Of a stretch of DNA of 64,000 nt, positions 11,989 to 53,433 are shown in pieces; positions within the stretch are counted from its first letter, which is position 1, and the number at the start of each line of letters is the position of its first letter. Position numbers and translations under genes: made by a program. Source of the stretch: Eledone cirrhosa (Eukaryota); contig OZ024741.1 in the NCBI GenBank assembly GCA_964016885.1, positions 311,178,001-311,242,000 of the forward strand, in the 5' to 3' direction. The notes beneath the pieces are model-generated. The model was not told the origin of the DNA, made no database searches, and saw only the letters and a program-made list of their open reading frames with translations.

Positions 11989-12120
11989 CTTGGCAATAGT
12001 GACCAACATAACCTGCATCACATCCAAGTAAACATGTTCCATTTCGCTTGCCACAGTTCCTATTGTCGAGACAATGGCATAACCCCTTACAAGCAACACC
12101 AAACTTTCCTACTGGGCATT
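11989..12120 (-). CDS. EGF-like repeat exon (132 nt, phase 1-1) of a MEGF10/CED-1/SCARF-like multi-EGF protein
   Basis: Bounded by ttttcag|AA and AG|gtatat. Reads ECPVGKFGVACKGLCHCLDNRNCGKRNGTCLLGCDAGYVGHYCQ, with 8 Cys in the CxxGxFGxxCxxxCxC...GxC...GCxxGYxGxxC pattern. Not in the ORF track in this frame. Confidence 0.85.
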
Positions 12121-12427
12121 CTGAAAATATCAATATGTATATGATAATGTTGAAGATATCATTAATTACATACAGATATCAATGATACAATTTTATACCA
12201 AATTTTAAGATTACCATAATAAAAATACCATAATAATAATAAATATATACTACAAAATCGTACCATATTCTAACGGATCCCAAGATATGTATTTGCGACA
12301 TTCTTCCATGTAAATACACACACACACACACACATATATATATATAATATAGTGTATATATATATAAATGCATACATACATACATAGGAGATACACTTAT
12401 ACTAGATAAATGCATACATACATACTT

Positions 12428-13068
12428 ACAAGAGAGATACACTTACACCAGAATGGTTGTCAAACAATACTGGTCCCCAAGAACAAATACATCCACCTGG
12501 CAAAAAACAACCGACCCATTTCATGCCAGAACCTGATGTATAAAGTGTATATAGCCTGCCCGAACCTGTTCCTCCAAAATTCCTGTGAAAATAATCACAT
12601 CATCGCAGATGAACAAGCAGCTGGAAAGAAAGTGGTTTTGGGGTGTGTTGAACAATTCCTAATCAATAAAACAGCGATGTAGGAGGTGCGACAACTTAGG
12701 AGGAATAAAGTTACAGTCTGGCTGGACTACAGGAAAGCTTTCGATTCTGCTCCTTTTTCTTGGGCTACTATCCTAAATTTAAAGACAGAGAAGGGGGGAA
12801 TCTATATTCACTGATAAAATAAAATATCACAGAGGTATATTTCAAGGAGACAGTCTCTCTGTTATATTATTTATCCTGTCATTAAACCATTTGTCTTTTC
12901 TGCTGAAGAAATGTGAAGAATACATCATTGGCTCACAGGAAGACAGAAATACGAGTCTAACCCATAATTTCTTTGTGGATGGTCTGAAACTCTATGCCGA
13001 GAACATAGATGGGATGAGGAAAAATCTTGACATGGTTACAACGTTCTCAAAGGATATAGGAATGGAGT
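12428..13068 (+). mobile_element. Truncated R4/Dong-like LINE RT fragment (copies at ~16005-16640 and 19530-20175)
   Basis: RPIACQNLMYK, WLDYRKAFDS, GIFQGDSLS and FFVDGLKL with stops; homologous to 32185-32895. Confidence 0.85.
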
Positions 13069-13117
13069 GTGGTGCCTCATATGAAGATCGAGCAGTCAAC
13101 ACACGTCGACTGCTATC

Positions 13118-49893: not shown

Positions 49894-51051
49894 TAATATT
49901 ATAAATATAATATTAATGGTATACTGATTCACTGAATTATCTAAACTATCGGAAAAACTACTGTAATTTCCCCATAAAACAAAATAGGCAGAAGGTAAAA
50001 TATATCGCCATGTAATGCTGATACCCAGAGGATTAGGAATATTTAGGTTTTAAAATTACCGAGTATCAAATCACGGTGTGGTAGCATGTTGTTTACTAAT
50101 AAAACAGTTCACTTATATCGTTTTGTTAACTGAACATAAAATTTTACACATTGTACTTTGCACACATGCATTTTTATTTTACAACTATTTAGTATTTATT
50201 TCCATGTTTTATATTTTATGCAAATAAACAACGGCAAGCATATCTACGACTGGAGAGATGGTAATGCCTTATTTTTGGGGTGTCGTCTCAACCGGCGTAT
50301 ATTGGCCTAAACCTGAATTACAAATCCGAATTTGATGGGTCGACCTATGCAGCGGGTCAACTTTTACACCGGCATATACGACATATATATATAAATGTAT
50401 TTATTTATATATATATATATATATATATATATATATATATATATATATATATATATATATATATATATATATAATATACATATATATGTACATATGTGTG
50501 TGTGTGTGTGGGGGGGGTATGTATGTGTGTGTGTGTGTGTGTGTGTGTGTGTGTGTGTGTATAGTAAGTACGTAACAATGTTATGATGATGTTCAACATA
50601 TCATTAATTACATACAGATATCAATGATACGATCTCATACCAAATTTTAAGATTAAGCTGGTCTTGTGATAAACAAATACACTTGCATATTTATTGAAGA
50701 TTATATCGATCCTCTATAAAATATACATGGATTTTTATTTCAGTTAAAAGCAATGTTAAAAAATATTATGAAAGAAACAAACTATATTATACGTAAAATA
50801 ACATTTATAATCCTTCCAAATCTTATCATATTCTAACAGTTACAACGATATGAAATAACGACATTCTAACATTTAAATAAACACACACATAAACACACAC
50901 ACATATAGATATATATATATAATATATAATATATAATGTATATATATAAATGCTTACATACACACATACAACCATACATACATACATACACACACACACA
51001 CAAACACGTATGTATATATATATATATATATATATATATATATATATATAT

Positions 51052-52775
51052 AGAAAGTTATATTTAAATTGTTGGGTTACAACTAGTAAATATTTATAAC
51101 TGATATAAAAGCACTCGACAAGTATTTGGAGTATATTTACGATATTAAATAAATGGAAACTATATTTATAAAACCATATTTATTTCATTATATATATTTC
51201 AGGGATATCATATTAACAATATGCTATGCCTTCCTCAGACAAAATACAATATAAACAGTTTTATAGATAAATAGATTTGACATACCGTACAACATCGACT
51301 TGTATTTGAAAAGTTGAATTGGCAGTGAAAAAATTGTACACAGAGAGAAAGAAAGAGAGAAAAAAGGAAAGAACGACAGAAAACGAAGAAAAAGAAGAAA
51401 AAGAAGAAATGCATGGAACAAAATAGAGAGATGGAAAGATAGATAAAGAGAAGAACTTCATGTAAAGAAACAGAGAGATATATATATATATAGAGAGAGA
51501 GGAAATAGAGATAGATATATATATAGAAAACCAGGTAGTGGGACATCCGTTGAGTAAACGTATCAATGATACATTTATTTATTTATTTATTTAGCTCTAG
51601 TATTAATGTAAGGGAGATATATGTGGTTAGGAGAGAAACCAGCTGTTATATAGAGAGAAAAATTAAAAATAACCAGACATAGGCGAGGCATAAAAACCCT
51701 ATGTTTTAATGTAGAGGTATTAGTATGTATAAAAACCAGCCACTATATTGTAAATATCAGTATTCCTGAATGAGACATGTATCCATAATGTGTGAAAAGT
51801 AATGATCTTATGTTTAGTTTTTAAAAAAAATTCATATGTTTATGTGATAACTACAAACATCTATGTGAATTTACATGATCAACTCTGCAAACCCTAAGTT
51901 CACGGAAAACATTCTCATTGTGCTATAAAAATTTAAGTATACATATATGTGTATATATATACACACATATATATATAGAGTCTATATAATGAGAATGTTT
52001 TCCGTGAACTTAGGGTTTGCAGAGTTGATCATGTAAATTCACATAGATGTTTGTAGTTATCACATAAATATATGAATTTTTAAAAAAAAACTAAACATAA
52101 GATCATTACTTTTCACACATTATGGATACATGTCTCATTCAGGAATACTGATATTTACAATATAGTGGCTGGTTTTTATACATACTAATACCTCTACATT
52201 AAAACATAGGGTTTTTATGCCTCGCCTATGTCTGGTTATTTTTAATTTTTCTCTCTATATAACAGCTGGTTTCTCTCCTAACCACATATATCTCCCTTAC
52301 ATTAATACTAAAGCTAAATAAATAAATAAATAAATAAATGTATCATTGATACGTTTACTCAACGGATGTCCCACTACCTGGTTTTCTATATATATATCTA
52401 TCTCTATTTCCTCTCTCTCTATATATATATATCTCTCTCTGTTTCTTTACATGAAGTTCTTCTCTTTATCTATCTTTCCATCTCTCTATTTTGTTCCATG
52501 CATTTCTTCTTTTTCTTCTTTTTCTTCGTTTTCTGTCGTTCTTTCCTTTTTTTCTCTCTTTCTTTCTCTCTGTGTACAATTTTTTCACTGCCAATTCAAC
52601 TTTTCAAATACAAGTCGATGTTGTACGGTATGTCAAATCTATTTATCTATAAAACTGTTTATATTGTATTTTGTCTGAGGAAGGCATAGCATATTGTTAA
52701 TATGATATCCCTGAAATATATATAATGAAATAAATATGGTTTTATAAATATAGTTTCCATTTATTTAATATCGTA
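51052..52775. repeat. Long fold-back (~780-bp arms, 51139-51919 and 51988-52774) with a hammerhead motif in each arm; PLE-pLTR-like
   Basis: Near-identical inverted arms with a ~68-bp spacer and (TA)n on both outer sides. Confidence 0.88.
52667..52732 (+). ncRNA. Type I hammerhead motif (mirror copy at 51181-51246, minus strand)
   Basis: UAUUUUGU-CUGAGGA-AGG..CCU-GAAA-UAUAUA-UA-AUGAAAUA. Confidence 0.68.
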
Positions 52776-53298
52776 TATATATATATATATATATATATAT
52801 ATATATATATATATATATATATATATATATATATATATATAGAGAGAGAGAGAGAGAGAGAGAGAGAGAGAGAGAGAGAGAGTCAGAGACATAGAGAGAG
52901 AGATAATTAAAATGGTGGTTCTAACATAGTTTTATACATATGAGTATGTGTTGTTTGTATATTTAGCAATATGTGATATGTTTAGGTATAATAATAATAA
53001 ATAATTATAGGGTTTAAATATCACGTTTAATGTAGACATAGCTTCCACAGTACTAGAATTATTTCATTCAAAAGTAATCATCATAAAAGCCGATTACTGA
53101 TGATTTCTTTGAAAGAAACTACTCTAGTCCAGTAGAAGCGATTTATATATTAAACATCATATGTGCACACACACACACATATACACTCAGACACCACCCC
53201 TCCACCACCTCACACACAGACGCACACTCAGACACAATTATATATGTATTTGTGTGCGTGTGTGTGTTTATGTGTATAGTAAAAAGTATATGATATAC

Positions 53299-53433
53299 CT
53301 CCTTGGCAATTCACACCAATATAACCTGCAGCACATCCATCTGAACATGCTCCATCAAACATGTCACAGTTATTATTGTTGATACAATGGCATATCGAAT
53401 TACAACCAAAACCAAACCTTCCGACTGGGCAAT
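53299..53433 (-). CDS. EGF-like repeat exon (135 nt, phase 1-1)
   Basis: tttttag|AT ... AG|gtatat; DCPVGRFGFGCNSICHCINNNNCDMFDGACSDGCAAGYIGVNCQG. Flanks are paralogous to those of exon 23184-23318. Confidence 0.87.

Follow-up and report, generated by a model that had tools for sequence, protein, structure and literature searches.

What kind of gene is built from single-repeat exons whose most recent copies differ almost exclusively at positions that change the amino acid? This question is raised by a 64-kb stretch of the Eledone cirrhosa genome (3.0 Gb), positions 311178001-311242000 of contig C2, hereafter called the window (C2 and C10 are contigs of the same genome). It contains eight copies of a 132-135-nt exon encoding an epidermal growth factor (EGF) repeat, all on the minus strand and with AG/GT ends; seven are intact (132 or 135 nt, phase 1-1, 8 invariant Cys) and one is broken. 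An earlier note, made from the sequence of the window, had placed all eight exons correctly and had proposed an expanding array generating ligand-binding diversity by positive selection. We consider it probable that the seven intact exons make up the EGF rod predicted for one gene in a lineage-expanded, tandemly arranged set of at least 33 single-pass genes with positively selected loops and helices, whose products are likely immune recognition receptors of the scavenger type, engaged with parasites or microbes in an arms race. The diversifying selection in this multigene cluster of predicted SCARF-like receptors is real and well supported.

Positive selection on the EGF exons

The three codon counts given in the earlier note were reproduced exactly. 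Exons E1 and E2 (Table 1) differ by 8 replacement codons and no silent one (9 nt, plus one codon indel), E2 and E3 by 12 replacement codons and no silent one, and E2 and E4 by 13 replacement codons and 1 silent codon. Singly these counts are statistically weak (P against neutrality 0.07-0.10, 0.02-0.03 and 0.14-0.21, respectively). In all 21 pairwise comparisons among the seven intact exons (comparisons that are not independent), the proportion of replacement differences (pN) exceeded that of silent ones (pS).

From 95 copies (hit-centred and contiguous loci) we obtained 73 open C2 exons, representing 67 unique sequences. We fitted site models with a codon program of our own, keeping the IQ-TREE topology fixed. 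Of the four frequency models applied, one took its mutation rates from polarised changes in the window introns, in which G/C sites mutate 1.6 times faster. The likelihood-ratio tests (LRT) of M1a against M2a gave 66, 66, 68 and 120 under the four models, with an omega2 of 2.9-4.4 at 39-53% of sites, and M8a against M8 gave 62. For the full set of 67, the omega of the whole exon was 1.3-2.3. For the seven exons of the window alone, M0 yielded an omega of 2.9 (P 0.005) and M1a-M2a a P of 2e-4.

An excess of replacements might also arise as an artefact of relaxed constraint combined with gene conversion, AT-rich mutation bias or decay. In its favour, the divergence of E1 and E2 equals the intron background (9 changes, 7.8 expected from the intron), and conversion inflates likelihood-ratio tests. 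E2 and E3 showed 14 changes against 6.9 expected. We extended the comparison of exon and intron divergence to the whole family, the clock being each pair's own upstream intron and the motif columns being fixed from the family pattern. Of 172 pairs, 57 were dropped (5 overlapping, 40 with the near flank unaligned, 12 with the block not adjacent), and 22 independent pairs were drawn from the 115 kept. Thereby, silent changes matched the neutral rate (35.5 observed, 33.4 expected), while loop replacements were 2.2-fold more frequent (171.5 and 79.1) and replacements in the Cys/Gly/aromatic motif reached only 0.15 of the expected rate (7 and 47.2).

A replacement-versus-silent test that uses no intron clock gave a P of 1.6e-5 for the EGF exons. 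In eight neutral simulations, six of them with heavy conversion, the LRT was 0-15.9 and the M0 omega 0.54-0.67, never 1.3; the observed values were 51 and 1.31. The signature of GC-biased conversion was absent (16 silent weak-to-strong and 14 strong-to-weak changes). Gene conversion inflates the selection signal, but does not explain it, and the artefact explanation is very improbable and already largely refuted. Multi-nucleotide codon changes accounted for 12 of 219 on terminal branches. In 12 broken copies, which are not independent, the motif constraint was mostly lost (rate 0.60, silent 0.76). These data support positive selection on the residues between the cysteines and purifying selection on the scaffold. 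The number of N-glycosylation sequons varies from 0 to 3 per repeat (8, 26, 19 and 12 of 65 distinct peptides, respectively), and the sequons overlap selected sites.

Diversification of the transmembrane exon

The view that change is concentrated in the loops holds for the EGF exons, but not for the whole gene. The transmembrane (TM) exon diversifies fastest in the gene, which was unexpected. Among 29 TM exons (28 unique), M0 gave an omega of 3.7 (LRT 57), and in 14 pairs we counted 266.7 replacements against 34.8 expected and 44.3 silent changes against 13.4 expected. The silent changes amount to 3.3 times the intron clock, indicating either that conversion has made the introns more uniform or that noise arose from alignment and path averaging. 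In the former case, pairing by lowest intron distance overstates rates, a point in favour of an artefact. Since the silent changes also exceed the intron clock, the 7.7-fold replacement rate is an overestimate. Two measures are independent of this clock, namely the replacement/silent ratio of 2.3 (P 7e-9), which argues against the artefact explanation, too, and the terminal single-base counts of 147 versus 13. In one pair the introns are 0.5% apart and the exon differs at 14 of 87 bases. Of the earlier proposal that positive selection generates ligand-binding diversity, the selection on inter-cysteine residues is borne out; diversification also extends beyond the presumed binding loops.

The signal-peptide (SP) exon exhibited no clear acceleration (replacements 28.3/21.9, P 0.12; M0 LRT 2.8). 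M1a-M2a gave an LRT of 12.5, stemming from 11% of sites.

Two clusters of tandem genes

With one exon as query, 1258 candidates were returned, and all of the best 150, which were scored, fall into C2:310.4-315.1 Mb or C10:25.8-27.3 Mb. An exact DNA pattern matched 291 times genome-wide, compared to 3 times for a control, and 93 of the first 100 matches listed lie in the C2 cluster. Within a contiguous 381 kb around the window we found 22 EGF copies, 12 open and 10 broken. EGF copies thus undergo birth and death.

Searches with the TM, protein tyrosine phosphatase (PTP), lectin and N-terminal parts of Octopus receptors did not reveal the ends of the cluster genes. These were exposed by comparing the low-copy sequence downstream of EGF groups, where a shared module consists of a 94-nt hydrophobic exon (phase 1 to 2), followed by an exon with a basic stop-transfer start running to a stop codon. 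The splice flanks and length of the 94-nt exon are those of the TM exon of a PTP-bearing paralogue. A DNA search with this TM block (40 of 41 candidates scored, 45 rows; 4 split pieces merged, 3 rows elsewhere omitted) located 18 loci in the C2 cluster and 20 on C10, and all 30 TM exons fetched were in frame. For the upstream SP block, the best 40 of 2240 candidates were scored (42 rows), so that the counts are lower bounds; all rows lie within the two clusters, and 29 of 30 fetched contain an intact signal-peptide exon of 58-64 nt ending in phase 1. On C10, SP and TM blocks of both strands alternate in 20 of 20 cases; on C2, 13 pairs of them are adjacent. By these 20 sets and 13 pairs, the two megabase clusters contain at least 33 tandem genes of the type SP-EGFn-TM-tail and are not one expanding array. 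The exon birth of the earlier proposal remains valid, together with exon death; the unit of expansion is the whole gene as well.

A single giant gene, or a cassette reservoir, in which hundreds of alternative EGF exons feed a shared 3' end as in Dscam, is extremely improbable. The 291 pattern matches, the symmetric exons and the broken copies between intact ones would suit such an arrangement, and several SP blocks on C2 have no TM block of their own and could splice into a neighbouring gene. A Dscam-type array has shared constant exons in one gene; here, EGF groups have their own SP and TM blocks, by which a giant or end-less gene was rejected. Furthermore, four genes on C10 are about 20-30 kb long, and the stretches of them that were retrieved contain about 4-5 EGF copies per gene. 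In a compact C10 gene, 2.2 kb of mostly repeat sequence lie between the SP exon and the first EGF exon.

The seven tails we read comprise 35-256 aa and are rich in Lys, Glu and Thr. In these (L004, L092, L110, L125, L134, L180 and L185) a purine-rich short repeat is read in different frames, resulting in basic or acidic tails. Neither PF00102 nor Octopus PTP sequences had matches in C2:310-316 Mb or C10:25.8-27.4 Mb. Lectin exons were found twice in the C2 cluster (at 314.02 Mb, an orphan, and at 315.46 Mb, in another gene) and not on C10. The orphan is a half-exon at C2:314022649-314022921 (minus strand), with no family exons on that strand within 156 kb.

Gene model of the locus

The gene predicted at this locus has the order SP, E8, E7, E5, E4, E3, E2, E1, TM, tail, with 476 aa, 56 Cys and compatible phases throughout (Table 1). 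The earlier note had observed that no signal-peptide, transmembrane or cytoplasmic exon lies in the window; all three were located outside it. The tail contains 36 Lys/Arg and 0 Tyr. Since the phase-1 exons are symmetric, repeats can be gained, lost and skipped in frame, and E6 would have to be skipped to keep the frame open. Its early stop recurs in copies at C2:311286481, 311301552, 311519822 and 311847717. The introns of the duplicated units carrying E1 to E3 differ by 5-7%. In the exon-less unit, the exon was cleanly deleted at window position 50573 between two ATCATA microhomologies. Such microhomologies flank acceptor and donor in many units and would provide a built-in route for exon loss.

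Table 1. Exons and other features of the predicted receptor gene (window positions unless marked C2)
Feature	Position	Strand	Remarks
Signal-peptide exon	C2:311271744-311271681	-	64 nt, intact, phase 1 end; about 30 kb beyond the end of the window, across the scaffold gap
Scaffold gap	59242..59441	.	200 N, between signal-peptide exon and E8
EGF exon E8	53299..53433	-	135 nt, phase 1-1, first intact EGF of the gene model
Exon-less unit	50495..51006	-	Upstream flank joined to downstream flank
EGF exon E7	29144..29275	-	132 nt
Broken EGF copy E6	28832..28964	-	133 nt, early stop, frameshift, lost Cys; AG/GT ends kept
EGF exon E5	23184..23318	-	135 nt
EGF exon E4	22474..22608	-	135 nt
EGF exon E3	19024..19158	-	In recently duplicated unit of about 3.5 kb
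EGF exon E2	15570..15704	-	In recently duplicated unit of about 3.5 kb
EGF exon E1	11989..12120	-	132 nt, last intact EGF; in duplicated unit of about 3.5 kb
Transmembrane exon	C2:311149331-311149238	-	94 nt, phase 1 to 2; outside the window, about 40 kb downstream of the exon array
Last coding exon (tail), inferred	from C2:311146842	-	111 aa, Lys/Glu/Thr-rich; AATAAA 220 nt after stop

The model was predicted from DNA alone. It skips three broken EGF copies and spans one scaffold gap, and its 5' link depends on the scaffold join because the gap separates the SP exon from E8. A second SP-EGF unit lacking a TM exon is situated directly upstream. The family might therefore be functional and this gene a recently silenced or mis-joined copy. 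We consider this quite improbable, as every exon of the model (SP, the seven EGF exons, TM and tail) has an open frame and canonical sites, and the seven EGF exons show the elevated omega given above and no loss of Cys. The reads of three runs map to introns and repeats and have the character of DNA from a source that is related, but not identical; they are uninformative on expression. Among 1234 candidates no homologue of the tail was found, which is weak evidence. A fold model was mediocre (pLDDT 66, pTM 0.37), yielded nothing at E<=0.001 in Foldseek and was not used.

Mobile and repeated elements of the window

An apparently intact open reading frame (ORF) of 965 aa at 1337-4234 (minus strand), with decayed relatives in the units of E1 to E3, presumably belongs to a Penelope-like element with reverse transcriptase (RT) and GIY-YIG nuclease, judged from its motifs. 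The introns around E7 are filled by non-LTR retroelement copies on the plus strand (24958-25908, 31847-34015, 35317-38281 and 42424-43828; RT ORFs of up to 722 aa), which we take to be R2/R4-like. By self-BLAST, long near-perfect inverted repeats (90-99%) are present at 51132-52781, 39986-41457, 56739-57236 and 63138-63584. They could be foldback elements or assembly artefacts.

Relatives and known receptor systems

A word search with a single exon returned no candidate, and Pfam gave just sub-threshold EGF_STAB1-2 matches in five of the seven intact exons. Profile searches returned multi-EGF proteins of molluscs and amphioxus. The best-scoring repeats (64-75% identity) occur in receptors of Octopus vulgaris and O. 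sinensis (XP_036365016, XP_036365017-25, CAI9733295/299) which comprise a signal peptide, Cys-rich and galactose-binding domains, EGF repeats, a TM segment and two PTP domains. In a tree of 112 rows, the 65 repeats of the array cluster together (87/93), and this clade is nested in a larger one (85/98) that also includes the repeats of the Octopus receptors. These receptors differ from the cluster genes examined by their N-terminal Cys-rich, lectin and PTP domains and by alternating repeats of 42 and 44 aa; the cluster genes have the long repeat and neither lectin nor PTP domain. Eight O. sinensis isoform models in the database contain 10, 10, 10, 9, 9, 8, 7 and 6 repeats, which, as annotated, would represent skipping of whole EGF exons.

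PTP-bearing counterparts are also present in E. cirrhosa at C2:257.5 and 261.7 Mb, 50 Mb from the cluster. These two lectin-EGF-TM-PTP genes (C2:257.5-257.65 and 261.74-261.87 Mb) are near-identical, with an identical TM exon, and reflect either a recent duplication or an uncollapsed haplotype. At C2:230.39-230.47 Mb (L064-L070) we detected a lectin-EGF gene whose last EGF exons are array-like; no TM or PTP exon was found for it, and a scaffold gap follows 12 kb later. It possibly represents the progenitor type. About 25 near-identical lectin(FTP)-EGF loci in tandem runs on C16, C20, C22, C23 and C27 represent another expansion, very recent, in a related family.

The earlier note had pointed to receptors of the CED-1/MEGF10/Draper/SCARF type or to receptor phosphatases. 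A single-pass receptor with 8-Cys EGF units is indeed predicted, and SCARF1 (E 4e-6) and Tie2 (E 0.005) are among the best matches with solved structures. Like SCARF1/SREC-I, CED-1, Draper and MEGF10, the cluster genes would encode type I membrane rods of this unit; the former are single or few conserved genes, compared to at least 33 here. CED-1, Draper and MEGF10 possess an EMI domain and cytoplasmic NPxY and YxxL motifs. Such motifs are ruled out for the gene of the window by the absence of Tyr from its tail. The phase-1 SP exon fits the first EGF exon directly, leaving no EMI domain in the model, although no EMI profile search was made. No PTP domain was encountered in the cluster genes, whose coding sequence ends in the exon that follows the TM exon. 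As predicted from its exons, the gene is neither a CED-1/Draper homologue nor a receptor-type PTP.

The closest architecture is known from gastropods. Subgroup 1A of the Biomphalaria LG5R family is reported to comprise clustered genes with a signal peptide, Tie2-like/EGF repeats, one TM segment and a small cytosolic domain without signatures, and the family includes many fragments as well as lectin- and PTP-bearing relatives, 1B and 1C (PMC13712769). The cephalopod genes share this arrangement, the likeness being one of architecture. The Biomphalaria cluster was linked to schistosome resistance by mapping (PMC13712769), while the cephalopod genes are distinguished by their number, codon-level selection that was measured, the hypervariable TM exon and the Lys/Glu/Thr repeat tails. 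At SudRes1 of B. sudanica, receptor PTPs with MEGF and galactose-binding domains are reported as paralogous MEGF genes with many non-synonymous differences and gain and loss of EGF domains between haplotypes (PMC12297450). The cluster genes resemble these in paralogy, in replacement-rich differences and in repeat turnover; neither the galactose-binding domain nor the tandem PTP domains of the SudRes1 proteins (PMC12297450) were found for them.

Possible function

The cluster genes may have originated from a cephalopod receptor with galactose-binding lectin, EGF and PTP domains after its lectin and phosphatase exons had been lost. In their products, disulphides would fix an EGF rod whose surface is variable. 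Ligand would attach to the surface between the cysteines, as in SCARF1, for which dimerisation and ligand binding through charged residues are reported (PMC11563577). Rod length could vary by in-frame gain, loss and skipping of exons. The helix would anchor the receptor, and, as the tail has no Tyr motif, the protein might act by capture and uptake, as a decoy or through a partner chain. The latter could explain the selection on the helix. An immune function is suggested by analogy with the Biomphalaria resistance loci.

Several points weigh against this interpretation. The fastest-changing part of the gene is the TM exon, which an extracellular arms race over ligand binding does not predict, and the immune role rests on the analogy with the snail. 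As 10 of 22 copies are broken, any single gene, including that of the window, may be decaying, and its SP link is weakened by the scaffold gap. By subset, the whole-exon omega was only 1.31 for the minus-strand exons (P 0.07) and 1.22 for the plus-strand exons (P 0.5), neither being significant. Conversion raised the site test in three of six recombinant replicates (LRT 8.5-15.9), yet to values far below the observed one. Tree support is limited by 44 columns, repeat trees being poorly resolved.

The main competitor of the immune reading is cell-identity recognition, in which the same receptors under the same selection would serve self/non-self or identity recognition (neuronal, in skin or suckers, between gametes, or in allorecognition) by homophilic or matched binding, with the helix setting cis pairing. 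We regard it as possible, but rather unlikely. Strong diversification of both the EGF surface and the TM helix is consistent with it, as are many genes multiplied by skippable exons, which would give combinatorial identities, the O. sinensis models differing by whole EGF repeats (10 to 6), and the dimerising EGF rods reported for SCARF1 (PMC11563577). Birth and death, the many pseudo-exons and the likeness to parasite-resistance genes of snails fit immunity at least as well. A more specific version appears unlikely to us: a cephalopod self/non-self system diversified at ectodomain and helix, in which the helix would be a selected specificity code (specifying cis partners, for instance the PTP-bearing paralogues, or allowing escape from parasite membrane effectors), introns would be homogenised by conversion and exon skipping would add combinations.

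Among the titles and abstract starts searched, with most subscription journals lying outside the coverage, none described a receptor cluster of this kind in cephalopods or selection on TM exons like these. The scavenger-type immune receptors proposed here provide a concrete cephalopod candidate, for which gene models, a copy number and measurements of selection are available. Selection that acts more strongly on the TM helix than on the ectodomain is uncommon and can be tested directly. The same architecture underlies schistosome-resistance loci in Biomphalaria (PMC13712769; PMC12297450), and this parallel suggests that molluscs repeatedly expand SCARF-like EGF receptors.

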